Below are positions 16,341-61,028 of a stretch of DNA of 64,000 nt, piece after piece. Under the pieces are notes generated by a model. The model saw only the letters and a list, made by a program, of their open reading frames with translations. It did not search any database and was not told where the DNA came from. The stretch is from assembly GCF_024700885.2 (NCBI RefSeq), contig NZ_CP117016.1; one strand, given 5' to 3'. The first letter of the stretch is position 1. Every line of letters begins with the position of its first letter. The stretch is from Escherichia coli. Its GTDB lineage: Bacteria > Pseudomonadota > Gammaproteobacteria > Enterobacterales > Enterobacteriaceae. The translations under genes and the position numbers were made by a program.

Positions 16341-16358
16341 TGCTCATAATTATGAGCA
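16341..16358. promoter_or_regulatory. 18-bp perfect palindrome TGCTCATAATTATGAGCA in c/ner intergenic region (candidate operator)
   Basis: Seen directly; lies between divergent repressor and ner-like genes. Confidence 0.5.
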
Positions 16359-16410
16359 ATAATCTAACACATATAAGGCAAACATCATTGCATCAACAAA
16401 GGAGACAACG

Positions 16411-16599: not shown

Positions 16600-16645
16600 A
16601 TATTTTGAGTCTTTGTAAAAGGTTATCACATATCGCAAAAGAGGT

Positions 16646-16960: not shown

Positions 16961-16970
16961 GGAGTAATCA

Positions 16971-18208: not shown

Positions 18209-18223
18209 CAGGGAAGACAAGCT

Positions 18224-19993
18224 ATGACCCCGGCACTGACTGAAAAACTGGTTGAAACAGCCCGCGCGGCACGTGACGCGGGGCATGGTAAACGCGGTGC
18301 AATATACGACGCTGCCTGTGCTGAACTTGGCATGTCCCGCGCCACTCTGCTGCGCAGGCTGAAGGAGGTATCTGTGACTGATAAACGCAAAAAACGCGCC
18401 GATGCCGGGCGCAGCGCCCTGACCCGCGACGAAGCCGCGCTGATATCTGCCACACTGCGTGAGGCCACCCGCAAGAACGGTAAGCGTCTCTATTCCATCG
18501 CAGATGCAGTGGAAACCCTGCGGGCTAACGGCTTTATCACCGCAGGCAGAACAGATGAAACCACCAGTGAGTTTTTCCCGTTGTCTGAAGATGCCATCAG
18601 CCGTGCTCTGCGTAACTATGGCCTGCACCCGGAACAACTGGATGCCCCTGCACCACATACCGAAGTGGCCAGTCTGCATCCCAATCATGTCTGGCAGATT
18701 GACGCCTCACTCTGCACGCTTTACTACCTGAGCAATGGACATAAAGGGCTGCAGGTGATGGACAGCGCGAAGTTCTACAAGAACAAGCCCGCTAACCTTG
18801 CCCGTATCGCCAGTGACCGCGTGTGGAGTTACGAGATTACCGACCATGCCAGCGGCTGGATTTACGTTGAGTATGTGACGGGCGCGGAATCAGGTGAGAA
18901 CCTGTGTTCTGTGCTTATCAACGCCATGCAGGAGCGTGGCGGCGCAGACGTGCTGCACGGCGTGCCGAAAATACTCTATCTCGACCCCGGCTCGGCAAAC
19001 ACCGCGGGTATGACGAAAAACATGTGCCGCTCACTGGGCATCGACCTGATAGCGCACAAGCCGCATAACGCCCGCGCCACCGGACAGGTGGAAAAGGCGC
19101 GTGACATTATCGAACGCAAGCTGGAGCCGGGTCTGAAGTTCCGGCCGGTTCACAGTCTGGAAGAACTCAACGCGCTGGCCGCGAAATGGCGCAGCCACTT
19201 TAACGCCACGGCTGTTCACAGCCGCCACGGTAAAACCCGCACGGATATCTGGCTGAAGATTACTGCTGAGCAGCTGAAAAAAGCGCCTTCCGTTGAGGTA
19301 TGTCGTGAACTGGCTGTGGCGGCACCAGAACTCCGCAAAGTCACGCCAAAACTTCGTGTCTCGTTCCGGGGCACTGAATTTGACGTATCAACGGTACCGG
19401 GCGTACTGGTTGGTGAAAAACTGATGATTACCCGTAACCCATGGCGCAGCGATGTGGCACAGGTGGTTCTGACCGGTGAGGACGGCCACGAGACGTTCTT
19501 CCTGGTCGAAGAGGTCAGAAAGAACGAGTTTGGCTTTGCTGAAGGCGCGGCGGTATTTGGCGAAAGTTACAAAGCCCTGCCGGAAACCCCGGCACAGATG
19601 GCGGCAAAAGAAACCGAAGCGCTGGTTACCGGTACAGACAACGCCGCAGATGCAGCCGCCGCACGCAAGGCGAAGGCGCTGCCGTTCGGCGGGCGGCTTG
19701 ACCCGTATAAACATATCGACGACACCACACTTCCGGCCTATATGCCGAAGCGTGGTCAGGCCTCTGACGTACGCGGGCCGCGCACTGAACAACGTCCCAT
19801 GACTCATGTGGAGGCCGCGAAAGCCCTGCGCGATAAGTTCAGCGCCGACGGCCTTACCTGGACGCCGGAACATTACCGCCAGTTAACGGCACAGTACCCG
19901 GACGGCGTACCGGAAGCCGCACTGGATGAAGTCATGGCCACGCTGACCACACCGGCCCGCAGCAGTGTTATCAGCATTGTTAACGGCAACTGA
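18224..19993 (+). CDS. DDE transposase (Mu A analogue, integrase-core type)
   Basis: 589 aa; N-terminal HTH, WQIDAS and LYLDPGSANT DDE-type motifs; followed by ATPase partner. Confidence 0.8.
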   Translation: MTPALTEKLVETARAARDAGHGKRGAIYDAACAELGMSRATLLRRLKEVSVTDKRKKRADAGRSALTRDEAALISATLREATRKNGKRLYSIADAVETLRANGFITAGRTDETTSEFFPLSEDAISRALRNYGLHPEQLDAPAPHTEVASLHPNHVWQIDASLCTLYYLSNGHKGLQVMDSAKFYKNKPANLARIASDRVWSYEITDHASGWIYVEYVTGAESGENLCSVLINAMQERGGADVLHGVPKILYLDPGSANTAGMTKNMCRSLGIDLIAHKPHNARATGQVEKARDIIERKLEPGLKFRPVHSLEELNALAAKWRSHFNATAVHSRHGKTRTDIWLKITAEQLKKAPSVEVCRELAVAAPELRKVTPKLRVSFRGTEFDVSTVPGVLVGEKLMITRNPWRSDVAQVVLTGEDGHETFFLVEEVRKNEFGFAEGAAVFGESYKALPETPAQMAAKETEALVTGTDNAADAAAARKAKALPFGGRLDPYKHIDDTTLPAYMPKRGQASDVRGPRTEQRPMTHVEAAKALRDKFSADGLTWTPEHYRQLTAQYPDGVPEAALDEVMATLTTPARSSVISIVNGN

Positions 19994-25099: not shown

Positions 25100-25174
<75 letters not shown>

Positions 25175-25363
25175 GTGAACTTTCTCGTGGAAAAATACGC
25201 GCTGGTGCGTACCGACCAGCCGGGATTCAGCGCCTGTACCCGCTCTCAGTTAATAAACAGCATCGATATCCTCCGGGCTCGCAGGGCGACCGGCCTGATG
25301 ACCCGCGACAATTACAGAACGGTAAATAACATTACCCTGGGTAAGTATCCGGAGGCGAAATGA
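25175..25363 (+). pseudogene. cbtA: 3' fragment of cbtA/ykfI/ypjF-family toxin gene (truncated by prophage insertion)
   Basis: Translation NFLVEKYALVRTDQPGFSA...ILRARRATGLMTRDNYRTVNNITLGK matches my recollection of the CbtA C-terminal half; GTG start with no RBS and in-frame stop 2 codons upstream. Confidence 0.5.
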
Positions 25364-25554
25364 TGACACTGGAAGCCGACAGCGTTAACGTACAGGCGCT
25401 GGATATGGGGCACATTGTCGTTGACATTGATGGTGTTAATATCACTGAACTGATTAATAAGGCCGCTGAAAACGGTTATTCACTCCGCGTGGTGGATGAC
25501 CGTGACTCTACCGAAACACCGGCAACTTATGCCAGCCCTCACCAGTTGCTGTAA
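25360..25554 (+). CDS. yeeW: YeeW-like small protein (CP4-44-type island)
   Basis: 64 aa, GGAGG RBS, ATGA-coupled to cbtA remnant as in CP4-44-type islands. Confidence 0.5.
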   Translation: MMTLEADSVNVQALDMGHIVVDIDGVNITELINKAAENGYSLRVVDDRDSTETPATYASPHQLL

Positions 25555-25838
25555 GACAATGCAGTGATACAGGGTATAGTGCCATTAACCACAGAAACAG
25601 CACTGTTGTCCTGTATTAAGCAGGCAAGAGAAGATGTCCTTACCCTGCGCCATCTGCAGCTTCTGAACCAGAACCGGTGAATCTCACTCAACAGGCTTCA
25701 TTTCTCCTGACGCCAGCCTGAATACAGCTGGCGTTTTCATTTATAAACAGAAAGGAAAACCGATAATAATGGAATGGACGCCCCGACCATGAAGCAACGG
25801 TAGGATATTACTGATAAACCTTCCAGTGGAGGTGCGTT

Positions 25839-36630: not shown

Positions 36631-36885
36631 TCAATAATGATAACGACATGCTGCAATGAGCAGTGAATCGTCGGTAACCGCGTATACCAGACGGTGCTCC
36701 TCTGTAATGCGTCGGGACCAGAAACCTGACAAATTATGTTTCAGGGGTTCTGGCTTCCCCTTACCTTCAAATGGCGTTCTGCGGGTATCTTTGATAAGTT
36801 CATTGATCTTTTTAACAATTCGCTTATCTGTTTCCTGCCAGTACAGATAATCGTCCCATGATTCCTCAGACCAGATTAGTTTCAC
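36631..36885 (-). CDS. yoeB: toxin YoeB (ribosome-dependent mRNA interferase)
   Basis: 84 aa, recognised sequence; overlaps yefM stop. Confidence 0.85.
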
Positions 36886-37133
36886 TCAATGATGTCCTTT
36901 TCCGTTCCTTTGCCTGATTTCAGGCTATCGATTGAGTCCATCAATCTCCGGGCGTTAGCGGGGGAGCGCAGTAGATAAGCCGTCTCTTCCAGCGAGTTGT
37001 ATTCTTCGAGTGACATCAGAACACAAGCCTCTCCATTCTGACGAGTAATAAGGATCGGGGCATGATCTTCAACGGCTTTCATCATTGTTGCCGACAAATT
37101 CTGACGCGCTTCGCTGTAGCTAATTGTACGCAT
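36882..37133 (-). CDS. yefM: antitoxin YefM
   Basis: [36 protein letters not shown] recognised; start trimmed. Confidence 0.85.
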
Positions 37134-44741: not shown

Positions 44742-45722
44742 TTACTTCGCGTTGTAATTACGCAGAGCGTTACGCCCCAACACAATCCCCGCGCCAACCA
44801 TGCCGCCCAGCAGCACTGCCAGAATCAAGGTAATTGCCTTTTTCGGACTATCGCGACGAATAGGTAACGTCGGTTTCATCACATAACGGTAAGCATGAAT
44901 ATCAAGATCATCAACCTTTAAGCTTTCGATATCCAGCAGGTTTTGACGAGTCTGATAGTAGTTTGGCGAGAACACCAACGGACGGGTCGCCTCGTGCTTA
45001 ATCATCGACTCCAGCGCTTCGCTCCCCAAAAGGAACAACGTATCTTGTGTGATATCTTCGCCAGTCTGTTGAATCTGCGGTTTTGTCACCTGCGCCTGAT
45101 TCGCATACTGCAACGCTTCCTGAATCTGACGGATACGCAGATCTTTCTGCTCCTGCGCGACTACTTCCTGCGTTCTTAAAGAGTCCTGCAAGTTTTTCCG
45201 TCCCAGAGCAATGTTGTCTTTGAGATCCTTTTCTAGCTCTTGATTCACTTTATCGTCAACTTGCTGAATGTATTGGGCCAACTTCATTTGTGCGCCCTCT
45301 GCAGTTTGCCCAACATAAGAAACAGTCAATGGTAATTGCTGGTTCTTAACAGAAGGTTCGATGGTAAGTTTTTCTCGTTCTTCCTGATTATCCAGCGTTT
45401 CTGCTAATGCAGAGAAGGCAGAACTGAAGCGACCAATTAACGTCTCCTGCAAATCCGATACTTTCGGTGCAGCCTGACCATAGATAACATTCATGGCATT
45501 GTTATAGCCAGCAATTTGCCCCACGTCGGGCTGAGTGATAATTGCTGTTGACGTCCATTTCTCCTTCGCTACTGCCAAATATCCAATAGCCAGGGCAATA
45601 GCCACAATGACGGAAATGATGATTGTCATCTTGCCACGCCACAACTGCACTAGTAAATCAATCAAATCAATCTGTTCCGGGTCATGGTTTTGCCCAGAAA
45701 CATTATTATTTTCTACTCTCAT
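44742..45722 (-). CDS. wzzB: O-antigen chain length determinant (Wzz/Cld)
   Basis: MRVENNNVSGQNHDPEQIDLIDLL recognised; TM helices at both ends. Confidence 0.85.
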   Translation of the reverse strand: MRVENNNVSGQNHDPEQIDLIDLLVQLWRGKMTIIISVIVAIALAIGYLAVAKEKWTSTAIITQPDVGQIAGYNNAMNVIYGQAAPKVSDLQETLIGRFSSAFSALAETLDNQEEREKLTIEPSVKNQQLPLTVSYVGQTAEGAQMKLAQYIQQVDDKVNQELEKDLKDNIALGRKNLQDSLRTQEVVAQEQKDLRIRQIQEALQYANQAQVTKPQIQQTGEDITQDTLFLLGSEALESMIKHEATRPLVFSPNYYQTRQNLLDIESLKVDDLDIHAYRYVMKPTLPIRRDSPKKAITLILAVLLGGMVGAGIVLGRNALRNYNAK

Positions 45723-45867: not shown

Positions 45868-47043
<1,176 letters not shown>

Positions 47044-47282: not shown

Positions 47283-48689
47283 TTAATCCAGCCATTCGGT
47301 ATGGAACACACCTTCTTTATCAATACGCTTATAAGTATGCGCACCAAAATAGTCACGCTGTGCCTGGATCAGGTTCGCAGGCAGAACAGCAGCACGGTAG
47401 CTGTCGTAATAGGCAACCGCTGCGGAGAAGGTCGGAACCGGAATACCGTTCTGTACTGCATAAGCAACGACATCACGCAGCGCCTGCTGGTAGTCATCGG
47501 CAATTTGCTTGAAGTACGGAGCCAGCAGCAGGTTAGCGATCTGCGGATTTTCGGCATAAGCATCGGTGATTTTCTGCAGGAACTGCGCACGGATGATGCA
47601 GCCAGCACGGAAAATCTTCGCGATTTCGCCGTAGTTCAGATCCCAGTTGTACTCTTCAGACGCAGCACGCAGCTGAGAGAAGCCCTGGGCGTAAGAAACG
47701 ATTTTGCCCAGATACAGCGCACGACGAACTTTTTCGATGAACTCAGCCTTGTCGCCTGCTGGCTGTGCTTGCGGACCAGAGAGAACTTTAGATGCGGCAA
47801 CACGCTGATCTTTCAGAGAAGAGATATAACGTGCAAACACAGACTCGGTAATCAGCGACAGCGGTTCGCCGAGATCCAGCGCGCTCTGGCTGGTCCATTT
47901 ACCGGTACCTTTGTTAGCCGCTTCATCCAGGATCACATCAACCAGGTAGTTACCGTCTTCATCTTTTTTGGTGAAGATATCTTTGGTGATGTCGATCAGG
48001 TAACTGCTCAGTTCACCGTTATTCCACTCGGTAAAGGTCTGCGCCAGTTCTTCGTTGGTGAGGTTCAGGCCACCTTTAAGCAGAGAATAGGCTTCAGCAA
48101 TCAGTTGCATATCACCGTATTCGATACCGTTGTGAACCATCTTCACATAATGGCCTGCGCCATCGGCACCAATATAGGTAACGCATGGCTCCCCGTCTTC
48201 AGCTACTGCGGCGATTTTGGTCAGGATTGGTGCAACCAGTTCATAGGCTTCTTTCTGCCCACCAGGCATAATAGAAGGACCTTTCAGCGCGCCTTCTTCA
48301 CCACCGGAGACACCGGTACCAATGAAGTTAAAGCCTTCGGCAGAAAGTTCACGGTTACGACGAATGGTGTCCTGGAAGAAGGTATTGCCACCATCAATGA
48401 TGATGTCACCTTTATCGAGATATGGTTTGAGGGAATCAATAGCAGCATCCGTGCCTGCACCTGCTTTCACCATTAACAGGATGCGACGAGGCGTTTCCAG
48501 AGATTCAACAAACTCTTTCACCGTATAGTAAGGAACCAGTTTCTTGCCTGGATTTTCGGCAATCACTTCTTCCGTCTTTTCACGGGAACGGTTGAAAATA
48601 GAGACGGTATAACCACGGCTTTCGATGTTGAGCGCAAGGTTGCGCCCCATCACTGCCATACCGACTACGCCGATCTGTTGCTTTGACAT
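47283..48689 (-). CDS. gnd: 6-phosphogluconate dehydrogenase (decarboxylating)
   Basis: [21 protein letters not shown], 468 aa. Confidence 0.9.
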
Positions 48690-48806: not shown

Positions 48807-49205
48807 TCACACGAACGATTTTGCAAAAGAAGGGTCAAATGGCCCCTCCTTAACTTCCACCATAAGAGCACGCGGAGATAGGCATTCGACACTGTGTATA
48901 TCGCCCGGAGAAAACTCCACAATGCTCATTCCAGTATTATCTCCTGCTATAAATTGCTTTATAACCTCACCATTTCTACCATACAAACAAACCTGAAGTT
49001 GCCCCTCCATAACAATGAACATTTCCCACTGATGAGGAAGTTCGTGATAATGCGGTTCAACATAGCTGCCCTTTACTAATGCAATAAGTAAACGCTGTAC
49101 CTTTTCTTGATGCGAGCCGTGCATCATAAGGTGGGAACGTAAACGTTCCGATTGCCCGGCTTGATCATATAATTCGTCGAGTTGGTCATTATCAATTAAT
49201 CGCAT
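48807..49205 (-). CDS. wbuC: WbuC-like cupin protein of L-FucNAc O-antigen clusters
   Basis: 132 aa, last gene before gnd, overlapping the upstream GT stop. Confidence 0.5.
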   Translation of the reverse strand: MRLIDNDQLDELYDQAGQSERLRSHLMMHGSHQEKVQRLLIALVKGSYVEPHYHELPHQWEMFIVMEGQLQVCLYGRNGEVIKQFIAGDNTGMSIVEFSPGDIHSVECLSPRALMVEVKEGPFDPSFAKSFV

Positions 49206-50406
49206 TGCATGCCTCCAACCTCATTTCTATCGTCTGTGCCGCAGACTCAACGGAGAATTGTTCTTTCAACAATATATTCGCCCCCGAACCAAGTTGCCGG
49301 CGCACATCAATATCATGCAACATTAATAGCGCAGATTGACATAATTTATCGTCCTCACCATTGACATGGATTAATCCCGCATTATTTTGATTGACAATGT
49401 CGAGCAAATCATTTCCGGCATTTACGCTACCTAAAATAGGTAGCGACTGAACCATATAGCCTAATAACTTACCAGGAAAATTATGGGAAGAGTGTCTAGC
49501 GGAAAGAGAAAACAAGCCGATATCCATTTCCGACAAAATGAACTTAAATTCATCTTGGTTAACCGAGGGCAAATAGGTGAAATTCGTCAATGCCCACTCA
49601 GATGCTAATGAATTAATTAATTCAACTTCATCCCCCTGGCCAATAAATAGGAAATGAGCTTGAGGATATGCTGCCATGTTTCTCACAAGTCGCATCAAGT
49701 TTGTCATGTCCTGTGCATGACCTATGTTTCCACCATAGAAGAAAATGGTTTTATCCTCTAGGCCAAGTCGCTTACGTAGTGGTATATAATCCTTGGGTAT
49801 GATCGTTGGTGTTAGGGATGCCCAATTACGCAAAACTTCGCACGGATAGCCTTTATTATCTTTCCGAAAAACATCAAGATTCTTATCAGACATAAGTCCA
49901 ATACGATTTGCCTGACGATAAGATATTTTTTCAAAAAGACGAAAGTAGCGTTCTATTGGGGAACCAGCATTAAGCATTCCTGCATCAATTACCCATTGTG
50001 GAAACATATCTCTTAAAATAAGATAAGCAGGACATTGGCAACGAGCTTTAATTTTTTTAACTAAAGGCCCCCAGAATATGGAAGGTGAATAATAAATCAC
50101 CCCCTCAAAGGTCTCTTTTTTTACCCATTTTTTGATGGCTTTCCACGCCCGATAGGACAAAAGCGTTTCATTGACCGCTCGCTGAATTTTACTTACATCC
50201 TTGAGCGGCCCGCTTTTAAAACGCCATGTTTTTACCCCCTGAAAGGTATCAAAAGAAATCTCTTCTTGCATGCCCGTACCAGGAGTAATTACCGTAACAT
50301 CGTGCCCACGCTGGATAAATTCTTGAGCAAGTTCATGAAACATTTTTGCACCAACACGAGTACTGTTGGGCAGGTAATCATCTATGATTAAAGCAAGTTT
50401 CATCAA
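49192..50406 (-). CDS. wbuB: glycosyltransferase family 4 (putative L-FucNAc transferase WbuB-like)
   Basis: 404 aa directly after fnlC. Confidence 0.65.
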   Translation of the reverse strand: MMKLALIIDDYLPNSTRVGAKMFHELAQEFIQRGHDVTVITPGTGMQEEISFDTFQGVKTWRFKSGPLKDVSKIQRAVNETLLSYRAWKAIKKWVKKETFEGVIYYSPSIFWGPLVKKIKARCQCPAYLILRDMFPQWVIDAGMLNAGSPIERYFRLFEKISYRQANRIGLMSDKNLDVFRKDNKGYPCEVLRNWASLTPTIIPKDYIPLRKRLGLEDKTIFFYGGNIGHAQDMTNLMRLVRNMAAYPQAHFLFIGQGDEVELINSLASEWALTNFTYLPSVNQDEFKFILSEMDIGLFSLSARHSSHNFPGKLLGYMVQSLPILGSVNAGNDLLDIVNQNNAGLIHVNGEDDKLCQSALLMLHDIDVRRQLGSGANILLKEQFSVESAAQTIEMRLEACNAIN

Positions 50407-51533
50407 TATTCTTTCCAGACGACTCTCTTAACATAATCTGTGTAAGAGTGAACAATTCTGACAACTTTATCCGACACATTTGGCATGCTGTAATCACTAA
50501 CCTGACGTAAAAGACGGACTTCACCTCGCGGTTGTGTTGCCAGAATATCCAGCGCTTGTAATACGCGTTCACACTCTAACCCCACCATCATGACGGATGC
50601 TTCCTCAAAGCCTTCCGGACGCTCATGCGCTTCCCGGATGTTTACCGCTGGGAAATTCATGATGGATGACTCTTCAGTGATAGTACCGCTATCTGAAAGC
50701 ACAGCTCGTGAGTTCTTCTGCAAGTGGTTATAATCATGGAAACCCAATGGTTTCAGTAGATTTATATTTGAATGAAATTCAATTCCTTGCTCACGGATTC
50801 GGTTACGTGTCCTTGGGTGTGTGGAGACAATAACTGGAAGATTATATTTTTCAGCAACAGTATTTAGAATGTTCGCAAGCTTTACGAGCTGTTTTGGAGA
50901 ATCAACATTCTCTTCACGATGCGCACTTACTACAAAAAACTCACCAGACTGTAGATTCAAACGCGATAGCACATCTGAACCATCAATTTGGGGCATATAA
51001 TATGAAAGAACCTCAAACATAGGGCTACCAGTTTTTATGATCCGATCAGCTGGGATACCTTCAGCCAAGAGATATTCACGAGCAATATCACTGTAGGTCA
51101 TATTGATATCAGCCGTATGGTCAACAATACGTCTGTTGGTTTCTTCAGGCACGCGTTGATCGAAACAACGGTTACCTGCTTCCATATGAAATATAGGCAC
51201 TTTACGGCGTTTGGCCGGAATGGCAGAAATACATGAATTCGTATCGCCCAATACCAGTATTGCTTCAGGTTTTTCGATTTCTAATACTTCATCTACCTTA
51301 ATAATAACCTGACCAATGGTTTCCGCCGCATTTTTACCCGCTGCATTTAAAAAATAATCAGGTTTTCGAACACCCAAGTCATTGAAGAACACTTCATTTA
51401 ATTCGTAATCATAATTTTGACCAGTATGGACAATAATATGCTCGCAGTATTCATCAAACTTAGCAAGAACCCTCGACAAACGGATAATCTCAGGACGGGT
51501 TCCAACAACAGACATAACTTTTAATTTTTTCAT
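50403..51533 (-). CDS. fnlC: UDP-N-acetylglucosamine 2-epimerase (FnlC)
   Basis: 376 aa non-hydrolysing 2-epimerase signature. Confidence 0.8.
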   Translation of the reverse strand: MKKLKVMSVVGTRPEIIRLSRVLAKFDEYCEHIIVHTGQNYDYELNEVFFNDLGVRKPDYFLNAAGKNAAETIGQVIIKVDEVLEIEKPEAILVLGDTNSCISAIPAKRRKVPIFHMEAGNRCFDQRVPEETNRRIVDHTADINMTYSDIAREYLLAEGIPADRIIKTGSPMFEVLSYYMPQIDGSDVLSRLNLQSGEFFVVSAHREENVDSPKQLVKLANILNTVAEKYNLPVIVSTHPRTRNRIREQGIEFHSNINLLKPLGFHDYNHLQKNSRAVLSDSGTITEESSIMNFPAVNIREAHERPEGFEEASVMMVGLECERVLQALDILATQPRGEVRLLRQVSDYSMPNVSDKVVRIVHSYTDYVKRVVWKEY

Positions 51534-52636
51534 TATAGAGGTCTCGCAATAGTATCGGGCTCATCACGGTTGAAAATTTCATTTGCCCAGAGCATGACTA
51601 TTAATTCATCAGTTCCAATATTTGTAATGTCATGTGTCCAACCAGGAACTGTTTCAACAATCTTAAACTCACCCGATGAAACTTTCAGTTCATATCGCTC
51701 ACCGGTAATCACATGTTCAAATTTAAAGCATGCCTGACCTCGAATGACCAAAAACTTCTCATTTTTACTGTGATGGTAATGTCCGCCACGCGTAATACCA
51801 GGGTGAGCAGTAAAAAATGAAAACTGCCCCGCTGAAGGCGTTTTCAACATCTCACAAAAGACTCCGCGGGCATCCCCATAAAAAGGTACCTTGTACGCAA
51901 ACTTCTCTGCTGGTAAATAACTCAGCCATGTAGAATACAATGCACGGGTAAATCCCGCCCCGACAGCCTCTGTGATCAGGGTGGAACGGCTATTTTTGAA
52001 GCTATAAATTAATTCTGCAACTTCACCAACTGTTGTTGAATAAATTGGTGCAACAACTTTATATCCACTTTCAACCGTCCCAGAGAGAAGAGCTATAGCA
52101 TCAGTACAAACATCATCAATATAGACCAGATTGACTGGCGCTGCTGCATCATTGATAGTAATCTCAATATCATTGGAAATATTGTAGCAAAAAGTTGCTA
52201 TAAAAGAATTATAGTTTGGCTTACACCATTTACCAAAAACGTTTGGATATCTGAAAATATAATACGAAGAACCACTAGCAGCAGCATATTTTTCGACATA
52301 GCTTTCAGCTACAGCTTTGCTAACCCCATAAGCATTATTAAGTTCAGCTTGTATCGAAGAACTTAGCATAATTGGTGTATTCTTACCAATAGAAAGGAGA
52401 TACTCAACTATATGCTTTGTTAAATCACTGTTTCCAGAAATAAACTCATCATCAGTCTTAGGTCTATTGATACCAGCTAAGTGATAAATAAAATCGGCAT
52501 CCTGTAAGCCTTGTTCAAGATCTTGCTTCGTTGATTCTCGATCAATTCTAATAAGATCTTTATAACCAAGTTCCTCAAGCCTCAAACATAAATTACGACC
52601 AATAAAACCATTTGCACCAGTAACTAATATTTTCAT
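51533..52636 (-). CDS. fnlB: FnlB-like reductase/epimerase (Cap5F-like)
   Basis: MKILVTGANGFIG Rossmann start; track ORF trimmed. Confidence 0.75.
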   Translation of the reverse strand: MKILVTGANGFIGRNLCLRLEELGYKDLIRIDRESTKQDLEQGLQDADFIYHLAGINRPKTDDEFISGNSDLTKHIVEYLLSIGKNTPIMLSSSIQAELNNAYGVSKAVAESYVEKYAAASGSSYYIFRYPNVFGKWCKPNYNSFIATFCYNISNDIEITINDAAAPVNLVYIDDVCTDAIALLSGTVESGYKVVAPIYSTTVGEVAELIYSFKNSRSTLITEAVGAGFTRALYSTWLSYLPAEKFAYKVPFYGDARGVFCEMLKTPSAGQFSFFTAHPGITRGGHYHHSKNEKFLVIRGQACFKFEHVITGERYELKVSSGEFKIVETVPGWTHDITNIGTDELIVMLWANEIFNRDEPDTIARPL

Positions 52637-52637
52637 A

Positions 52638-53672
52638 TCATGAATCCAGATTATATTTTTCACCAGCACGAATTGCTCGAATAAAGGCTAATTTTAGCAA
52701 GAGCTCTTTCATGCCTTCAACATCTAACCGTTGAGTATTATGAGAGTTATAATCTTCTATTTCAGATATTCGGCTATCACCTTGCTCAACATATTTGCCA
52801 TAATTAAGGTCACGAAGATCTGGCGGGACACGGTAATAATCGCCCATATCTATAGCAGCGATCATTTCCTCACGACTAAGTAGAGCTTCATATAATTTCT
52901 CGCCATGACGCGTTCCAATGACATTTACCGGATGGTCAGGAACATTTAGTAATTCCTTTAAAGCAATAGCTAATGTGTCAATAGTTGCTGCAGGTGCTTT
53001 TTGCACAAAGATATCACCATTATTACCATGTTCAAACGCATAAAGAACTAAATCTACCGCATCCTCAAGAGTCATCATAAAGCGGGTCATATTAGGATCA
53101 GTTATTGTGAGTGGCTTGCCCGCTCTAATAAGATCAACAAATAATGGAATAACTGAACCGCGAGATGCCATAACATTCCCATAACGGGTACCACATATTA
53201 CTGTTTTATTGCGATCAACATTACGGGATTTCGCGACCATGACCTTTTCCATCATAGCTTTTGAAATACCCATTGCGTTAATCGGGTATACAGCTTTATC
53301 AGTACTTAGGCATACAACCCTCTTCACTTCATTCGCTATAGCTGCTTCAAGAACATTTTCCGTACCAAGGATATTAGTTTTAACGGCTTCCATAGGATGA
53401 AATTCACATGATGGAACTTGCTTAAGTGCCGCTGCATGATATATAAAATCAACACCGCGAGTCGCATTCAAAATACTACGGTAATCTCTGACATCACCAA
53501 TATAGAACTTTAATTTTTGATTATTGTATTTTTTCCGCATATCATCTTGTTTTTTTTCATCACGACTAAATATACGGATTTCTGCAATATCTGTATCAAG
53601 AAATCTATTTAATACAGCATTCCCGAAAGAGCCAGTACCACCAGTAATTAACAGTGTTTTAGATGAAAACAT
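52638..53672 (-). CDS. fnlA: UDP-GlcNAc 4,6-dehydratase/5-epimerase (FnlA/CapE-like)
   Basis: TGGTGSFG motif, 344 aa. Confidence 0.85.
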   Translation of the reverse strand: MFSSKTLLITGGTGSFGNAVLNRFLDTDIAEIRIFSRDEKKQDDMRKKYNNQKLKFYIGDVRDYRSILNATRGVDFIYHAAALKQVPSCEFHPMEAVKTNILGTENVLEAAIANEVKRVVCLSTDKAVYPINAMGISKAMMEKVMVAKSRNVDRNKTVICGTRYGNVMASRGSVIPLFVDLIRAGKPLTITDPNMTRFMMTLEDAVDLVLYAFEHGNNGDIFVQKAPAATIDTLAIALKELLNVPDHPVNVIGTRHGEKLYEALLSREEMIAAIDMGDYYRVPPDLRDLNYGKYVEQGDSRISEIEDYNSHNTQRLDVEGMKELLLKLAFIRAIRAGEKYNLDS

Positions 53673-53713
53673 AATAACCGAACCTCAAATCATTGACAAA
53701 TATACTCTGGAAG

Positions 53714-54892
53714 CTATTTACTTACTTGACCTAACTTATTAGTAATTGAACTCTGTCCACTAAGTGTTACTCTATTCAAAAACATATATATAAAAGATAG
53801 AAAGAAATAGCCGTTAGATCCTAAAACTAAACCTTTGGTATTGAAAATTATCCCAATTAACATCCATATAATTGCTTGATATGTCATTCCAAATGTCGCA
53901 ATAGAAATAGTAAAGATTAAAAATAAAAAGAGTGTAATAAATGTTAACCCACCGTAATTAAACAGTATAACCCAGCCCATATCCGAACTTTGTTTAATAT
54001 CGGGGATTGATGAAGATATGTTTTGCTGTAATCCAAATATAATATTAAAAAAATCTAAATTACCTACAACAAACACATGTTGCTGTAATAAGATATCCAG
54101 AGTTCTTGTGCCATCTCCAGAAACGAACTCATCATAAAATCGAGGAAAGAACACTGCTCCTAAGCTATAAACTAAAACTCCCAAAATCAATACTGTTGCA
54201 ATTTTTATATTAATATTAAGTCTAGAGCAACCGATACCAATAATGGCTGCAATCACAGCCATGTTAGAATTTACGATTTGAGTCAGACAAATTAAAGTAA
54301 TTAAAGCATAACGCCTTTTCATCATAAAAAATGACATATAGATCATCAAAAATGGTGTCATGAAATTTATTTCACCCGACAACCCAAATCCTCTTACTTT
54401 AGCATTTTGTTCCCAAAGATTAACAGAGTCAGACATACCAAAGAAAGTATATAACAATCTTTTTAACTCTGGACTTATATACATACCAAAAAAAATAACT
54501 ATTTGAACCCAGAGAGAATACACTAATATTCGCTCCATTAATTTCAAGTCACCCTTTATGAATCTATTTACTAAATAATACGCAGGAACAAATGAAAATA
54601 AAAACAACATAAATAATCTAACGGTAAAATAACTTTGAAAAGAATGGCTTTTTTGAAACAAATCGAAAACCAAACAAAATAAAAAAATAATTATGAATAT
54701 AGATAACAGCAACAAATTTTTACGATCTATAGATACCAATCCATTGCCCATAGTAATCATAAAATTACGCACTAAATACATAATACCAAAAAATGCAGGA
54801 ATAAATGCCAAATATAAGAAAGGTATTATCAGCGACAATCTAAAAAAAACAACAAAAAATAATAAAAAAGCCATCAATGCATTATACTTCAT
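53714..54892 (-). CDS. wzy: O-antigen polymerase (Wzy-like)
   Basis: 392 aa polytopic membrane protein, very AT-rich gene. Confidence 0.55.
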   Translation of the reverse strand: MKYNALMAFLLFFVVFFRLSLIIPFLYLAFIPAFFGIMYLVRNFMITMGNGLVSIDRKNLLLLSIFIIIFLFCLVFDLFQKSHSFQSYFTVRLFMLFLFSFVPAYYLVNRFIKGDLKLMERILVYSLWVQIVIFFGMYISPELKRLLYTFFGMSDSVNLWEQNAKVRGFGLSGEINFMTPFLMIYMSFFMMKRRYALITLICLTQIVNSNMAVIAAIIGIGCSRLNINIKIATVLILGVLVYSLGAVFFPRFYDEFVSGDGTRTLDILLQQHVFVVGNLDFFNIIFGLQQNISSSIPDIKQSSDMGWVILFNYGGLTFITLFLFLIFTISIATFGMTYQAIIWMLIGIIFNTKGLVLGSNGYFFLSFIYMFLNRVTLSGQSSITNKLGQVSK

Positions 54893-54941
54893 TGTTTTTT
54901 ACCTTCCATACAAATGTCTTAATAAATGAAGATAGCATCAT

Positions 54942-55928
54942 CTATATATACCAGTTCTTAAGCAAATCATCTGTTTTTGAGGTGCCACGCTCTCCAATAC
55001 CATGTATATATGCCGAAATCAACACATATCTGTAAAGAATTGGGAAATAGAGTTTTTTATTTGCATCTGTTTTTTTTAAAAATTGTATTATTTTTTTAAA
55101 AATAAATTTATTGAAAAATATTGATTGGCATATTTTACTAAACGTTTTGTGTTTACTAAATATTTTCTCAACTAGGAATAATTTTTTATTAGTAGAAAAC
55201 ATTTCAGGCCTTACTTTGCTTAATACATTCATACCATCACGTGCTGTAGCACGAATTTTTTTTGTATATCCTTCTATATCGCCACTGTATTCGTGATGTA
55301 ATATTTTAAAATCAGCAAAAATAATTTTGAAGTCATTTTTTTCAAGTTGCCACCCAAACTCATGATCTTCACAACCATAACCAATAAAATTTTCATTATA
55401 TGAAACTATACCTGATGAAAATGCCTTTCTATCAAGAACACAATTCATTGCGACAAAAGTCCAGGCATTCATAGAGATATCAGGACTATCACTAAACTTA
55501 GGGTGTAAAGAGTTCCTGTAGCGATAGTAATTGCTGGTCTCAATGAGTTCATTTTCGAATCTAACTTCCCCACATAAAACGCTTTTACTATTCATTTTTT
55601 TTAAATAGTTCAGCAACGATGATATATATCCACTTGCGGGTATACAATCATCATCAAGAAATATTAAATAATCCCCATGGGCTAGGGATGCTCCGAAATT
55701 GCGCTTAGCGGAGAGTATATTTTTAGTATGTTGATGGATAATATTAATATTTTTCTTTTTATGAATATTATCAGCAACTACATCATCAATTTCTTTACCA
55801 CTATGACTATCGGAAACAATTACTTCTAGGTGTAGACTATTGTCTTTAGCCTGAGAATCGAGCTCAGAGAGAATCAATTCTAATTGAACTGGGCGTTTCC
55901 AAACAGATATTATTACCGAGATATTCAT
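54942..55928 (-). CDS. glycosyltransferase family 2
   Basis: 328 aa, LIFLDDDCIP DxD region. Confidence 0.7.
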   Translation of the reverse strand: MNISVIISVWKRPVQLELILSELDSQAKDNSLHLEVIVSDSHSGKEIDDVVADNIHKKKNINIIHQHTKNILSAKRNFGASLAHGDYLIFLDDDCIPASGYISSLLNYLKKMNSKSVLCGEVRFENELIETSNYYRYRNSLHPKFSDSPDISMNAWTFVAMNCVLDRKAFSSGIVSYNENFIGYGCEDHEFGWQLEKNDFKIIFADFKILHHEYSGDIEGYTKKIRATARDGMNVLSKVRPEMFSTNKKLFLVEKIFSKHKTFSKICQSIFFNKFIFKKIIQFLKKTDANKKLYFPILYRYVLISAYIHGIGERGTSKTDDLLKNWYI

Positions 55929-57169
55929 AATTTATGAGGCCTACATACGGTTTTATTTACTTTAATGAATTGTTTAAGCATTCCCATGCCAACGAAAATT
56001 TCAGCTACAATAAGACTCACAATCGCACCCGTTGCTCCATAATATTTACATGCTGGATAAACTATGCTTAAACAAGTAATAGTTCCTAGGAAAATAGATT
56101 TGAAATACTGTTTTTGCATCCCATTAGGTACTAATACAAGTAACCCGACAACTGTATTAAAACCTATGAATATAGGAAGCAATGTCATTAATTGCATTGC
56201 ACCTGCAATTACTTCACCTTTCATGCCGAATATTAATAATGATAATTGGTTGGCAAAAAGTAAAAATGGTATTGCTAAAGCCATGTAAAAAACAAGCAAG
56301 TATTTAAGAATCATTCTAGATTTTAAGTTTGCAATATATGGATTCTCTCTTTGCAAAATGTTAATTCTTGGATAAAAAGCTTGGACTAATGGTGATGCAA
56401 GTCCAGCCAAACCTTGTTTGATCATGTTAGCTGAGTTAAAGATGCCTACATCAAACTTTCCAGATACGCCACCCAATACAAGAGGGGTCAACATTGTGTA
56501 TGCACTAGTCGCAAGTGTTGAACAAAAAAAATGAAATCCATTTTTTAAAATTACTTGAATTTTCTTTATCGGTGGCCTACATAAAAAAATCTCCTTGATA
56601 ATAAGTAAGTAGGCAACGCCACAGAATGAATACAAAATATATGGCATGCTCAATAATAAGGCACTGATGTACATCGGCGTTGCGGGTTTTATAATTAGAT
56701 AAACTGCAACGACTGCTATGCCTCGTGAAAATAGTGACAGCACAGCCATCACACTCATCATTTCCTTACCTTGCAAAAACCAATTTGGATTGAAAACACC
56801 TGCAATTACGGACAGAAAACCAACACATAACAAAGACTTAACGTCGTTAAAAACATAAAAAAAACAGAGTATTATGAGTATTATAGCTGCAATTAGCATT
56901 AATATAAAACGAGCAAGCACCACACCGCAAAAAAATTCAGAATGGTATTTTTTATCGTTATTTAGTGCTATTTCTCTTGTCCCACTATATCCAAAACCAT
57001 ATTCAACAACCATTAACAACACTTGTATAGTTATCAATGAAAAACTCAGATCACCAAAATTCGATACACCAATGACTCTAACAAGATAAGGAAAAATTAA
57101 TAATGGCAGTAGGTAATTGGCACCCTGACTTATTGCAAGGTAAAGAACATTTAGTTTAGTTTTGCTCAA
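55925..57169 (-). CDS. wzx: O-antigen flippase (Wzx)
   Basis: 414 aa, 12-TM polysaccharide exporter; first gene of the cluster. Confidence 0.75.
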   Translation of the reverse strand: MSKTKLNVLYLAISQGANYLLPLLIFPYLVRVIGVSNFGDLSFSLITIQVLLMVVEYGFGYSGTREIALNNDKKYHSEFFCGVVLARFILMLIAAIILIILCFFYVFNDVKSLLCVGFLSVIAGVFNPNWFLQGKEMMSVMAVLSLFSRGIAVVAVYLIIKPATPMYISALLLSMPYILYSFCGVAYLLIIKEIFLCRPPIKKIQVILKNGFHFFCSTLATSAYTMLTPLVLGGVSGKFDVGIFNSANMIKQGLAGLASPLVQAFYPRINILQRENPYIANLKSRMILKYLLVFYMALAIPFLLFANQLSLLIFGMKGEVIAGAMQLMTLLPIFIGFNTVVGLLVLVPNGMQKQYFKSIFLGTITCLSIVYPACKYYGATGAIVSLIVAEIFVGMGMLKQFIKVNKTVCRPHKL

Positions 57170-57237
57170 TGAAGTGCCCCATATACAACAGATATCATTC
57201 GAGTAACTTATTCACATGAATCAATAAGTTGTTTATT

Positions 57238-58335
57238 CAGGGCAAGATTACGAAAGCCCGCTCCCCGCAAGAACTGACGCCAGATAGTTTCTGTCCATGG
57301 CTGCTTTTCGCATCTTACGTCTTAACCCTGCCTTGAATACCTTATCATTCGTCAAAATATTAATAGCAATGTGCCGTATCCCTGAAAATAAATCTGCTGC
57401 ATTTCCTCTTCTTATTTTGCAGTCGTCTTCATTCATTACCACGTCCAGACGCCAGTGCAGCTTATTCTCCACGTGCCAGTGGTTTCGGATTGCTGTGGCG
57501 AACTTCTCTGCGGTTAAATCAGCAGAACTGATATAATATCTGACCGTCATTTCTGGCTCTTTCTTTTGTTCTGCTATTATTGACCGAAAGGAGACTGCCA
57601 CGCATAATTTCTTCAGACCTTTCCATTCAAACGTGAAATCAAAAAGTTCATCAGGGACATCGCAAACAATATGAAGACGGATTTCGTCTCTGCCGTGACT
57701 CTTTTCACTCATTGCGTAACTGTCATGCTCTGGATTATTTAATTCTTTCAGTGGAAATTTTTCCTCAAAGGCTTTATTAAGCCGCCCCTGATTTCCTTTT
57801 ACAGCGAATAAATAATCACCGCCCTGTTTTTGTATCTTCTCTGCAATATCTTTCTGGCAACCCATCGCATCAGTTGTGATGATTTTTCCTTTAATATCCA
57901 GCATGTTAAGAAGTTCAGGGATAGCTGTAATTTCATTGGATTTCTCATCCGTCCTGATCTGTCCGATGACCAGACTGTGCATTGTTGAGAACGCACTAAT
58001 GACATGAATCGCTCCCTTGCGGCGACTCTTGTCATAAGAATGCCGGAGTGTTTTTCCATCAATTGCGATGAAGTCTTTATCATCTGAAGAATGGCAGTCA
58101 CGCATCCAGTTAATAAAGCACTCGTGAAATTTTGCAGGACTGATACAGGATACAACTCTGGCAATGGTATCGTGAACAGGAATACCATTTTCAAAATCAC
58201 CATATTGCTTCAAAAAATCGAGATGTGTTTCCCCAAAATCCTCTATATCTTCCCAGCCTTCTGCACCCGAAATAACGGCACAAATAGTCAACAGTAGAAT
58301 ATCCGACAATTTATGTTCCACTTTCCAGGCTTGTC
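57238..58335 (-). mobile_element. ISAs1-family (H-repeat-like) element, outer copy body, interrupted at 58335 by a nested copy
   Basis: Begins with CAGGGCAAGATTACG terminus; 1097-bp periodicity with the next copy; the missing 5' part reappears at 59626-59829. Confidence 0.75.
57248..58321 (-). pseudogene. ISAs1-family transposase lacking its first ~20 codons (split by nested IS)
   Basis: About 95% identical by eye to the intact downstream copy; N-terminal codons found at 59626-59685. Confidence 0.7.
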
Positions 58336-59625
58336 AGGGAAAGATTACGAAAGCCCGCACCCCGCAAGGACTGACGCCAGATAGTTTCTGTCCATGGCTG
58401 CTTTTCGCATCTTACGTCTTAACCCTGCCTTGAATACCTTATCATTCGTCAAAATATTAATAGCGATGTGCCGTATCCCTGAAAATAATTCTGCTGCATT
58501 TCCTCTTCTTATTTTGCAGTCGTCTTCATTCATTACCACGTCCAGACGCCAGTGCAGCTTATTCTCCACGTGCCAGTGATTTCGGATCGCTGTGGCGAAC
58601 TTTTCTGCGGTTAAATCAGCAGAACTGATATAATATCTGACCGTCATTTCTAGCTCTTTCTTTTGTTCTGCTATTATGGACCGAAAGGAGACTGCCACGC
58701 ATAATTTCTTCAGTCCTTTCCATTCAAACGTGAAACCAATAAGTTCATCAGGGACATCGCAAACAATATGAAGACGGATTTCTTCTCTGCCGTGATTTTT
58801 TTCACTAATTGCGTAACTGTCATGCTCTGGATTATTTAATTCTTTCAGTGGAAATTTTTCCTCAAAGGCTTTATTAAGCCGCCCCTGATTTCCTTTTACA
58901 GTGAATAAATAATCACCGCCCTGTTTTTGTATCTTCTCTGCAATATCTTTCTGGCAACCCATCGCATCAGTTGTGATGATTTTTCCTTTAATATCCAGCA
59001 TGTTAAGAAGTTCAGGGATAGCTGTAATGTCATTGGATTTCTCATCCGTCCTGATCTGTCCGTTGACCAGACTGTGCATTGTTGAGAACGCACTAATGAC
59101 ATGAATCGCTCCCCTGCGGCGACTCTTGTCATAAGAATGCCGGAGTGTTTTTCCATCAATTGCGATGACGTCTTTATCATCTGAAGTATGGCAATCTCGC
59201 ATCCAGTTAATAAAGCACTCGTGAAATTTTGCAGGACTGATACAGGATACAACTCTGGCGATGGTATCGTGAACAGGAATACCATTTTCAATATCACCGT
59301 ATTGTTTTAAAAAATCGAGATGTGTTTCCCCAAAATCCTCTATATCTTCCCAACCTTCTGCACCAGAAATAACGGCACAAATAGTCAACAGTAGAATATC
59401 CGATAATTTATGTTCCACTTTCCAGGCTTGTCTGTAATCGGGGATAATAGAAATATGTTCCATCAATTTTTTAAGTTCCATTTTGTTCTCCTTAATTATG
59501 TAAGGAGTATTTGATCATGTATAAGCAATAAAAAACAGCTTTATGTAATGAGGAATATCTCAATTTTTAAACATAAAATGCGAATTGTTTAGTACAAAAA
59601 AGCAGCATTACGTGATCTTTCCCTG
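58336..59625 (-). mobile_element. ISAs1-family element, complete nested copy (1290 bp)
   Basis: Terminal inverted repeats CAGGGAAAGA / TCTTTCCCTG; flanked by the direct repeat CCAGGCTTGT. Confidence 0.8.
58345..59481 (-). CDS. ISAs1-family transposase (H-repeat-associated protein), intact
   Basis: 378 aa, [26 protein letters not shown]... Confidence 0.85.
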
Positions 59626-59829
59626 CCAGGCTTGTCTGTAATCGGGAATAACAGAAATATGTTCCATCAATTTTTTAAGTTCCATTTTGTTCTCCTTATT
59701 TAAGCAAGGAGTATTTGATCATATATAAGCTGTGAAAAACAGTTTTAGGTAATGAGGGATATCTCAATTTTTGAACATAAAATGCGAATTATTTAGTACA
59801 AAAAGTGTACTTCTGATAATCTTTCCCTG
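59626..59829 (-). mobile_element. 5' end of the outer ISAs1-family copy (first ~20 codons, leader, terminal IR)
   Basis: Starts with the 10-bp duplication CCAGGCTTGT and ends with IR TCTTTCCCTG at 59820-59829. Confidence 0.75.
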
Positions 59830-59837
59830 CCCCTAGA

Positions 59838-59876
59838 CACGCTACCGCCCCTGGCTTTACAGCTACCAGAGCACTG
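59838..59876 (-). promoter_or_regulatory. JUMPstart element with ops (GGCGGTAGCGTG) for RfaH-dependent antitermination
   Basis: Reverse complement reads CAGTGCTCTGGTAGCTGTAAAGCCAGGGGCGGTAGCGTG. Confidence 0.85.
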
Positions 59877-60134
59877 CATGCATGCCTACGATGTAGCGAG
59901 CGTTACCCACTCGCGCTAAACCCGAAAAATTCAAACGCTAATTGTCTTACCAATCCGCTCTGGAAACAAGGAAAATCCTGGAAAACTTTGACTAAAATCC
60001 TATTGCTAACTCGTTGTTATTCTGATTGTTTATATAAAACAACGGCAGGAAAATTCGCAGCAAATTACTTTCGCCACGAATCTTCACTGCCGTTATAATT
60101 TTCTTATCAACCGTTACATTCGGTCAGATTTTCA

Positions 60135-61028
60135 TTATTCGCTTAACAGCTTCTCAATCCCTTTACGGAACTTCGCCCCTTCTTTCAGGTTGCGTAGTCC
60201 ATACTTCACAAATGCCTGCATATACCCCATTTTTTTACCGCAGTCGTAGCTGTCACCTGTCATCAGCATGGCATCAACGGACTGTTTTTTCGCCAGTTCA
60301 GCGATGGCATCAGTCAGCTGAATACGCCCCCATGCACCAGGCTGAGTGCGTTCAAGTTCCGGCCAAATATCTGCAGAAAGCACATAGCGACCAACGGCCA
60401 TGATGTCTGAGTCCAGCGTCTGCGGCTGATCCGGTTTTTCGATGAATTCAACAATGCGGCTGACTTTACCTTCACGGTCCAGTGGTTCTTTGGTCTGGAT
60501 GACCGAGTATTCAGAGAGGTCACCCGGCATACGTTTTGCCAGCACCTGGCTACGGCCCGTTTCATTGAAACGCGCAATCATGGCAGCAAGGTTGTAGCGC
60601 AGCGGGTCGGCACTGGCGTCGTCGATCACAACGTCCGGCAGTACCACGACAAATGGATTGTCACCAATGGCGGGTCGTGCACACAAAATGGAGTGGCCTA
60701 AACCTAAAGGTTCGCCCTGACGCACGTTCATAATGGTCACGCCCGGCGGACAGATGGACTGCACTTCCGCCAGTAGTTGACGCTTCACGCGCTGTTCAAG
60801 GAGAGATTCTAATTCATAAGAGGTGTCGAAGTGGTTTTCGACCGCGTTCTTGGACGCGTGAGTTACCAGGAGGATTTCTTTGATCCCTGCAGCCACAATC
60901 TCGTCAACGATGTACTGAATCATTGGCTTGTCGACGATCGGTAGCATCTCTTTGGGAATCGCCTTAGTGGCAGGCAACATATGCATCCCAAGACCCGCTA
61001 CAGGAATAACTGCTTTTAAATTCGTCAT
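60135..61028 (-). CDS. galF: UTP-glucose-1-phosphate uridylyltransferase regulatory subunit GalF
   Basis: [32 protein letters not shown]; start trimmed. Confidence 0.85.

Follow-up and report, generated by a model that had tools for sequence, protein, structure and literature searches.

The galF–gnd locus of an Escherichia coli genome is very probably the serogroup O15 O-antigen gene cluster

Which O antigen is specified by the genes between gnd and galF in the stretch of Escherichia coli DNA studied here (the window, 64,000 nucleotides), and is the cluster whole, given that insertion sequences stand in front of its first gene? The initial annotation had described an L-FucNAc-type cluster and left its serogroup unassigned. 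Here, we compared the locus with profile libraries, solved structures and complete genomes, and weighed the readings that its upstream region invites.

Layout and composition of the galF–gnd interval

The cluster consists of eight ORFs, all intact and on the minus strand, which lie at 48807–57169 where the initial annotation had placed them and which abut or overlap by 1–14 nt in an operon-like manner (Table 1). The ORFs and the profile matches agree with the order proposed before (wzx, GT2, wzy, fnlA, fnlB, fnlC, wbuB-like, wbuC-like), and they bear out that just two genes in the galF–gnd interval encode glycosyltransferases and that fnlABC are its only precursor genes, with rml absent. The rest of the interval is only ISAs1 sequence (57238–59829) and the JUMPstart (59838–59876). 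By established knowledge, the sequence matching CAGTGCTCTGGTAGCTGTAAAGCCAGGGGCGGTAGCGTG is the JUMPstart/ops element, which recruits RfaH and signals where the untranslated 5′ part of the O-antigen operon starts. The limits 48807–57169 thus hold for the genes; as a transcription unit they do not, because the right end reaches the JUMPstart at 59876.

The cluster had also been called AT-rich compared with the flanking his and gnd genes, and base composition is in line with this: the GC content of its genes is 29–43% compared with 50–53% in gnd, galF and his. It is lowest in wzy (0.288), followed by the GT2 gene (0.310) and wzx (0.337), and ranges from 0.376 to 0.431 between fnlA and wbuC. Outside the cluster, the values are 0.502 for gnd, 0.515 for galF and 0.525–0.533 for hisF/hisIE, with a window mean of 0.498.

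The hallmarks of the Wzx/Wzy pathway were found, in that wzx and wzy are in the cluster and wzzB is nearby, and no Wzm/Wzt ABC-transporter ORF is present among the ORFs of the galF–gnd interval. The wzx and wzy products have eight and nine hydrophobic segments, respectively, as polytopic membrane proteins. The wzx product had no match among the NCBIfam HMMs, and the wzy product had none in a search of the NCBIfam and Pfam profiles. In the GT2-family enzyme no membrane segments were predicted, and its match to Glyco_transf_7C (galactosyltransferase domain) stayed below threshold (21.3 bits compared with 23).

Table 1. Features of the locus, in window coordinates
Feature	Position	Strand	Description	Support
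wzzB	44742..45722	minus	O-antigen chain-length regulator, partner of Wzy	ORF list and RefSeq annotation
ugd	45868..47034		Between wzzB and gnd	
gnd	47283..48689	minus	Conserved downstream flank	ORF list and RefSeq annotation
wbuC	48807..49205	minus	Small cupin-fold protein, step not assigned; 14-nt overlap with wbuB	TIGR04366, 143 bits (cut-off 42)
wbuB	49192..50403	minus	GT-B fold (GT4-type) glycosyltransferase	PF13439 and PF00534
fnlC (wbjD/capG type)	50403..51533	minus	Non-hydrolysing UDP-sugar 2-epimerase; third step, giving UDP-L-FucNAc	TIGR00236, 220.8 bits (cut-off 210)
fnlB (wbjC/capF type)	51533..52636	minus	UDP-2-acetamido-2,6-dideoxy-beta-L-arabino-hexul-4-ose reductase; second step	NF047837, 550.7 bits (cut-off 500)
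fnlA	52638..53672	minus	UDP-GlcNAc 4,6-dehydratase/5-epimerase; first step to UDP-L-FucNAc	TIGR04130, 757.6 bits (cut-off 730)
wzy	53714..54892	minus	O-antigen polymerase, 392 aa	RefSeq name 'O15 family O-antigen polymerase'
GT2 gene	54942..55928	minus	GT2-family glycosyltransferase, 328 aa	PF00535, E=7e-19
wzx	55925..57169	minus	O-unit flippase, 414 aa, TTG start	PF01943, E=6e-33
ISAs1/ISEc1 copy A, 3′ part	57238..58334	minus	Outer copy; includes the duplicated 10 bp	NF033564, 414 bits
ISAs1/ISEc1 copy B	58335..59625	minus	Inner copy, 1291 bp, inserted into copy A	NF033564, 404 bits
ISAs1/ISEc1 (H-repeat) copy A, 5′ part	59626..59829	minus	Outer copy; IS coordinates 1–204, left inverted repeat CAGGGAAAGAT	
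JUMPstart	59838..59876	minus	39 bp, holds the ops motif GGCGGTAGCGTG	Exact match to CAGTGCTCTGGTAGCTGTAAAGCCAGGGGCGGTAGCGTG
galF	60135..61028	minus	Conserved upstream flank	ORF list; RefSeq annotation of MLI114 (identical strain)

Probable identity with serogroup O15

A serogroup can now be given to the locus. All 8363 of the 8363 nucleotides at 48807–57169 match 99 complete E. coli genomes at 100% identity, a direct observation, and the matches are chromosomal throughout, at a single place per genome. In these 99 genomes RefSeq names wzx 'O15 family O-antigen flippase' and wzy 'O15 family O-antigen polymerase'; the O15 call rests on these RefSeq/PGAP names, carried by identical sequences. The locus is therefore very probably the E. 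coli serogroup O15 O-antigen gene cluster, Wzx/Wzy-dependent and lying in the galF–gnd interval. Over the whole 64-kb window, strain MLI114 is 99.998–100% identical.

In the RefSeq-annotated O15 genomes the order is, as here, galF, ISAs1, wzx, GT2, wzy, fnlA, fnlB, fnlC, wbuB, wbuC, gnd. The biosynthetic genes show no difference from those genomes; within the paired insertion sequences, positions 261–724 are exchanged relative to Ecol_316 and THO-008. A further 11 genomes (TUM1886 type) carry a variant O15 allele with the same eight genes in identical order, the same IS site and the same flanks, 99.2% identical over 9.6 kb. In this allele the IS is a single uninterrupted element of 1291 bp, 98.0% identical to the outer copy of the window; of the two alleles, only that of the window has the nested second copy. 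One gene content is thus found across all 110 complete genomes with the cluster (99 identical and 11 variant), and the same locus organisation was seen in MLI114, Ecol_316, THO-008, ATCC 8739 and TUM1886.

The biosynthetic cluster is already known and ordinary, and no novel reading of it is left. The initial annotation had stated that a serogroup already well characterised and with the same genes would overturn it; such a serogroup, O15, was found, in 99 identical complete genomes. Its interpretation was right, but the finding is not new. O15 has long been known, and the literature cites a sequence of its cluster (Beutin et al. 2005, J Clin Microbiol 43:703; GenBank AY647261; O-genotype Og15) and a structure of its O-polysaccharide (Perepelov et al. 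2011). Among extraintestinal pathogenic E. coli, where O15 is an established serogroup, it is the O type of the O15:K52:H1/ST393 clonal group (PMC3695789); a bioconjugate vaccine candidate with a phase III listing includes the O15 antigen (PMC9614730). The value of the result as a discovery is small; its practical use lies in annotation, as the window can be given an O15 label and is essentially identical to strain MLI114.

A proposed route to the O15 repeat unit

The L-FucNAc-type assignment is upheld by the profile scores of FnlA, FnlB and FnlC and by their homologues of solved structure, namely PDB 4j2o (E=2e-190) and CapE 3vvb (E=2e-150) for FnlA, Cap5F 2zkl (E=2e-100) for FnlB and CapG 7ya2 (E=1e-125) for FnlC. 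As all three score above their equivalog cut-offs, the UDP-L-FucNAc route is predicted to be complete. The start of fnlB was corrected: the ORF list gave a 378-aa product from a GTG at 52669, which overlaps fnlA, and the RefSeq start is equivalent to 52636. The same three-enzyme route from UDP-GlcNAc is taken by Cap5E/F/G of Staphylococcus aureus and by WbjB/C/D of Pseudomonas aeruginosa O11, but these act in the making of a capsule or of another genus's O antigen, alongside transferases and polymerases that differ from those of O15.

Closer relatives are found within E. coli. In O145, fnlB-fnlC-wbuB-wbuC shows 96.5% identity across 3.9 kb and likewise adjoins gnd, and in O26, O4 and O25 the 3′ module fnlABC-wbuB-wbuC has the same order at 71.4–71.5% nucleotide identity. 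The last three serogroups also carry rmlBDAC and further transferases, with units containing L-Rha and/or Glc, while O15 has neither. They share with O15 the predicted L-FucNAc-(alpha1->3)-GlcNAc step (PMC7685785). The serogroup-specific half of O145 differs, in that it has sialic-acid synthesis genes and L-FucNAc is converted to its acetimidoyl form (L-FucNAm; PMC7685785).

That wbuB follows fnlC is a position kept in the O145, O29, O26, O4 and O25 modules. The gene encodes a GT-B protein between fnlC and wbuC that is homologous to WbuB of O26, O4, O25 and O145 (homology group 5 of Liu et al. 2020), and 13 E. coli WbuB proteins are assigned the L-FucpNAc-(alpha1->3)-D-GlcpNAc linkage in a review (PMC7685785). 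WbuB is thus likely to be the transferase of L-FucNAc onto GlcNAc-PP-undecaprenol. The GT2 enzyme, for which we infer both acceptor and donor, would attach the O unit's third sugar to L-FucNAc. WbuC also matches DUF6016 and cupin profiles.

Drawing on established knowledge for the individual steps, we propose the following pathway. The operon would be transcribed from upstream of JUMPstart/ops, and read-through of ∼2.6 kb of co-oriented, nested ISEc1 would be needed before wzx is reached. WecA, whose gene lies elsewhere, would transfer GlcNAc-1-P onto undecaprenyl phosphate; GlcNAc is favoured over GalNAc as the first sugar because gne is missing beside galF (there is none between galF and wcaM, and wcaM lies 174 nt further upstream of galF). 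FnlA, FnlB and FnlC would convert UDP-GlcNAc to UDP-L-FucNAc, from which WbuB could place alpha-L-FucNAc onto O-3 of GlcNAc, and the GT2 enzyme may then add beta-D-Gal from housekeeping UDP-Gal. The trisaccharide unit would be flipped by Wzx and polymerised by Wzy, with chain length set by WzzB and ligation to lipid A-core by WaaL.

The published O15 repeat unit is said to be ->2)-beta-D-Galp-(1->3)-alpha-L-FucpNAc-(1->3)-beta-D-GlcpNAc-(1->; a full-text literature search for a printed structure of the unit returned citations only. A third sugar of Gal from housekeeping UDP-Gal would explain why the locus lacks any other precursor gene. The short repeat unit suggested earlier, an initiator plus two transferases, is borne out to the extent that two glycosyltransferases and a housekeeping initiator fit a unit of three sugars. 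For the third sugar the initial annotation had offered two explanations. A housekeeping sugar is now favoured, and a loss of genes at the IS site is not, since the same content occurs in 110 genomes, the single-IS allele included.

The nested ISEc1 pair and rival explanations

At the IS site noted earlier stands a single ISAs1/ISEc1 element of 1291 bp (copy A), into which a second copy (copy B) is inserted. Copy B encodes an intact transposase of 378 aa (58345–59481) and is bounded by a 10-bp direct duplication, ACAAGCCTGG, at 59626–59635 and 58325–58334. When copy A is rejoined (59626–59829 and 57238–58324), it likewise measures 1291 bp and has an intact 378-aa transposase. The 3′ part of copy A is labelled in RefSeq as a transposase pseudogene 'missing N-terminus'; this 'truncated' ISAs1 transposase pseudogene would be better called a whole element that a second copy has split. 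The two copies are 95.5% identical. Their transposases (NF033564, cut-off 70), the terminal inverted repeats of ISEc1 (CAGGGAAAGAT / CAGGG(A/C)AAGAT) and the target-site duplication of the inner copy place them in the ISAs1 family. Around the outer copy no such duplication is seen, its left flank reading GTCTAGGGG and its right flank AATAAACAAC.

This missing duplication is compatible with a past IS-associated rearrangement, and O-antigen clusters are known to be remodelled by IS elements (PMC4379981). It could then be argued that the locus is a degraded remnant, in which an IS-mediated deletion beside galF took precursor or transferase genes (e.g. rmlBDAC) and left the O antigen altered or absent. 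We consider this extremely improbable. The eight ORFs are all intact, gene content and IS flanks are identical in 110 complete genomes whose two alleles are 0.8% apart, and a unit built by WecA and two transferases is complete provided that its third sugar comes from housekeeping metabolism. As both alleles have the same content and IS flanks, any rearrangement is older than the known O15 cluster and belongs to its normal form. A loss of genes at this site was rejected on the variant allele, where a single intact IS occupies the same site next to identical genes. Hardly more credible is an assignment to another, perhaps new, O group that has O15-like wzx and wzy, in which case the RefSeq 'O15 family' names would mislead. 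The names do follow a RefSeq rule, the two genes have no NCBIfam HMM match, and near-identical clusters are common to some E. coli serogroups (PMC4379981); on the other side, the identity to O15-named genes is 100% and extends to the whole cluster in 99 genomes, the fnlABC, wbuB and wbuC content suits an L-FucNAc O antigen, and serological differences at shared clusters usually come from genes outside, which would leave the identity of the locus unaffected.

An unlikely reading, too, is that the nested pair blocks transcription from the JUMPstart, so that the cluster is silent or is run from an IS-internal or IS-end promoter and not as a normal RfaH-dependent operon. The distance speaks for it, as ops and wzx are 2.6 kb of IS sequence apart, and a consensus scan found minus-strand promoter-like hexamers within the IS copies and one minus-strand terminator-like site at 57690–57674. 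The scan counts were not above expectation, however, with 11 promoter-like sites compared with 8.0 ± 3.1 in shuffled sequence, and the IS genes point the same way as wzx. Moreover, the arrangement is fixed in O15 genomes, clinically successful lineages serotyped O15 among them, which implies that the O antigen is expressed.

ISEc1 itself is widespread: a BLAST search with 57100–59900 found it in 5368 of 5426 genomes, with a median of six places per E. coli genome. Coverage counts are for this reason uninformative on the conservation of the nested arrangement, and loci were compared individually. Compared base by base with the nested-IS loci of Ecol_316 and THO-008, the assembled window shows a reciprocal exchange of IS positions 261–724 between the two copies. 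Such an exchange between otherwise identical O15 loci suggests that copies A and B recombine with each other. It is conceivable, but very unlikely in our estimate, that recombination of these directly repeated copies between ops/JUMPstart and wzx yields a variable spacer by which O15 expression is tuned or switched from lineage to lineage. The exchanged form of the window is also found in about 10 other genomes.

The O15 O-antigen locus

The initial annotation described an AT-rich O-antigen cluster between gnd and galF that it could not assign to a serogroup. Its gene order, strand and coordinates were borne out by eight closely packed minus-strand ORFs at exactly those positions, as was its AT-richness: GC content is 0.288-0.337 in wzx, the GT2 gene and wzy and 0.376-0.431 from fnlA to wbuC, against 0.50-0.53 in gnd, galF and the his genes. 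Downstream of the cluster are gnd, ugd, wzzB and the his operon, and upstream are galF, wcaM and wcaL. Two products of the ORF caller were discarded as artefacts, namely a 378-aa GTG-start version of fnlB (51533-52669) that overlaps fnlA by 32 nt, the RefSeq start being 52636, and an unsupported 391-aa plus-strand ORF (47301-48476) lying antisense and entirely within gnd.

Megablast of the 8363-base cluster against 5426 complete E. coli genomes returned a full-length, 100% identical copy in 99 genomes, chromosomal and one per genome. RefSeq names wzx in the matching genomes 'O15 family O-antigen flippase' and wzy 'O15 family O-antigen polymerase'. Another 11 genomes carry a variant allele, 99.2% identical across 9.6 kb, in which neither the genes nor their O15 names differ. 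These matches identify the cluster as the already known E. coli O15 locus. The initial annotation had named a match to a well-characterised serogroup of the same gene content as the outcome that would refute its interest, and this is what the comparison gave. The O15 cluster was reportedly sequenced by Beutin and colleagues in 2005 (J Clin Microbiol 43:703, AY647261), and the polysaccharide structure is said to have been published by Perepelov and colleagues in 2011 (Carbohydr Res 346:381). Over the entire window, strain MLI114, which comes from Mali, matches at 99.998-100% identity. ATCC 8739, a laboratory reference strain, also has the O15 cluster (13908-19674 of its locus, L005), with a variant Wzy protein accession and a frameshifted inner ISEc1 transposase. 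The uropathogenic clone O15:K52:H1/ST393 belongs to this O group (PMC3695789), and O15 is also among the components of an ExPEC bioconjugate vaccine candidate that is in phase III (PMC9614730).

Features of the O15 cluster and its upstream region
Feature	Coordinates	Strand	Remark
JUMPstart/ops, canonical 39-bp	59838-59876	-	first element met reading from galF
Outer ISAs1-family ISEc1 ('H-repeat') element, 1291-bp	59829 to 57238	-	starts eight bases past JUMPstart
Inner complete ISEc1-type copy, 1291-bp	59625-58335	-	splits outer copy after its base 204
wzx	55925-57169	-	ORF list
GT2 glycosyltransferase	54942-55928	-	ORF list
wzy	53714-54892	-	ORF list
fnlA	52638-53672	-	ORF list
fnlB	51533-52636	-	ORF list
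fnlC	50403-51533	-	ORF list
wbuB	49192-50403	-	ORF list
wbuC	48807-49205	-	ORF list

Module composition and proposed O-unit synthesis

Curated HMMs identified FnlA (TIGR04130, 757.6 against a cut-off of 730), FnlB (NF047837, 550.7 against 500), FnlC (TIGR00236, 220.8 against 210) and WbuC (TIGR04366, 143 against 42). The Fnl enzymes have solved homologues in Acinetobacter FnlA (4j2o) and S. aureus CapE, Cap5F and CapG, with E-values between 1e-100 and 1e-190. The Pfam search of the cluster proteins assigned Wzx to Polysacc_synt, the GT2 enzyme to Glycos_transf_2 and both GT-B half-domains to WbuB, and gave no match for Wzy, although that protein contains nine strongly hydrophobic segments, against eight in Wzx. 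The wbuC gene, which overlaps wbuB by 14 nt, encodes a cupin of 132 aa; it is present alongside the fnl-wbuB module in at least six serogroups, in about 400 of the 423 E. coli genomes that matched.

The fnlB-wbuC half is common to O145 (96.5% identity), and its counterparts are about 81% identical in an unnamed nonulosonic-acid cluster, 79.5% in O29 and 71.4-71.5% in O26, O4 and O25, whereas the wzx-GT2-wzy half matched only O15-annotated genomes among the 5426. The cluster thus has the usual E. coli modularity, a shared sugar-pathway module beside a low-GC serogroup-specific one.

Following established knowledge of Wzx/Wzy-dependent O antigens, WecA of the ECA locus would load the first sugar as GlcNAc-1-P. 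The ORF list contains no gne in the 174-nt gap between wcaM and galF, which argues for GlcNAc over GalNAc as this sugar. UDP-GlcNAc would be converted to UDP-L-FucNAc through FnlA, FnlB and FnlC, and WbuB would add the L-FucNAc; a review attributes the L-FucpNAc-(alpha1->3)-D-GlcpNAc linkage to 13 WbuB proteins of E. coli (PMC7685785). The GT2 enzyme would add the last sugar, after which the unit would be flipped by Wzx and polymerised by Wzy, with chain length set by WzzB. WecA and the two glycosyltransferases support the short, three-sugar repeat unit proposed initially. We take the O15 unit to be ->2)-beta-D-Galp-(1->3)-alpha-L-FucpNAc-(1->3)-beta-D-GlcpNAc-(1->. If this structure is right, the GT2 enzyme would be an inverting beta-1,3-galactosyltransferase using housekeeping UDP-Gal, and no additional precursor genes would be required. 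The sole hint of galactose in the sequence is a galactosyltransferase-domain score of 21.3 bits for the GT2 enzyme, under the Pfam cut-off of 23.

In four O15 genome records, of THO-008 (twice; 9300-10100 of L004), STN0717-11 and FDAARGOS_1291, fnlA is a pseudogene through an IS1 insertion; such strains have probably lost L-FucNAc synthesis and may be O-rough despite their O15 genotype. IS1 also lies within fnlA of the O29 strain AR_0019 (13452-14215 of L008).

A nested ISEc1 pair upstream of wzx

The two ISAs1 transposases annotated between galF and wzx (57238-59829), one of them as truncated, belong to one complete ISEc1-type element that is interrupted by another complete copy. The inner copy has the 10-bp duplication ACAAGCCTGG on both sides. 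When its halves are rejoined, the outer copy, 95.5% identical to the inner and ending 68 bases from wzx, encodes an intact 378-aa transposase, so that the RefSeq 'ISAs1 transposase, incomplete, missing N-terminus' is half of an interrupted complete element. In the variant-allele strain TUM1886, one uninterrupted 1291-bp ISAs1 (17431-18721 of L006) occupies the same site and flanks as the outer copy, to which it is 98.0% identical, against 95.1% to the inner; the JUMPstart of this allele differs by one base. The outer copy is therefore older than the allele split, with the inner inserted later, and the TUM1886 locus represents the state preceding the nested insertion.

The initial annotation had offered either a housekeeping third sugar or gene loss at the IS site in explanation of the missing precursor genes. 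Since gene content is identical in the nested and single-IS forms, gene loss is removed as an alternative, and the housekeeping sugar is favoured. The flanks of the outer copy carry no target duplication, so an old IS-associated rearrangement there is conceivable; if real, it belongs to the O15 cluster as known.

Relative to the O15 strains Ecol_316 and THO-008, the outer and inner copies have exchanged IS positions 261-724 reciprocally (window 57805-58268 and 58902-59365). Each copy has 15 diagnostic sites, which together make up 30 of the 34 mismatches across 3.1 kb, and the O-antigen genes are 100% identical; the window's IS version is matched at 99% or more in only 11 complete genomes. Either an intramolecular double crossover between direct repeats or mis-phasing of the repeats in some assemblies would account for this pattern. 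The nested structure and the apparent reciprocal exchange between its copies are the only details that are mildly new.

Elsewhere in the window, a Mu-like prophage extends from position 1 to about 25100, as mapped from the MLI114 annotation, and continues past the left edge. Its genes include a DDE transposase, an ExeA/MuB-like ATPase, Gam, Mor, a DNA adenine methylase and head, tail sheath and tail tube proteins, and it adjoins a truncated cbtA toxin gene and yeeW at about 25172-25555. A yefM-yoeB toxin-antitoxin pair at 36631-37133, between the his leader and yeeZ, is ordinary, as in other E. coli.
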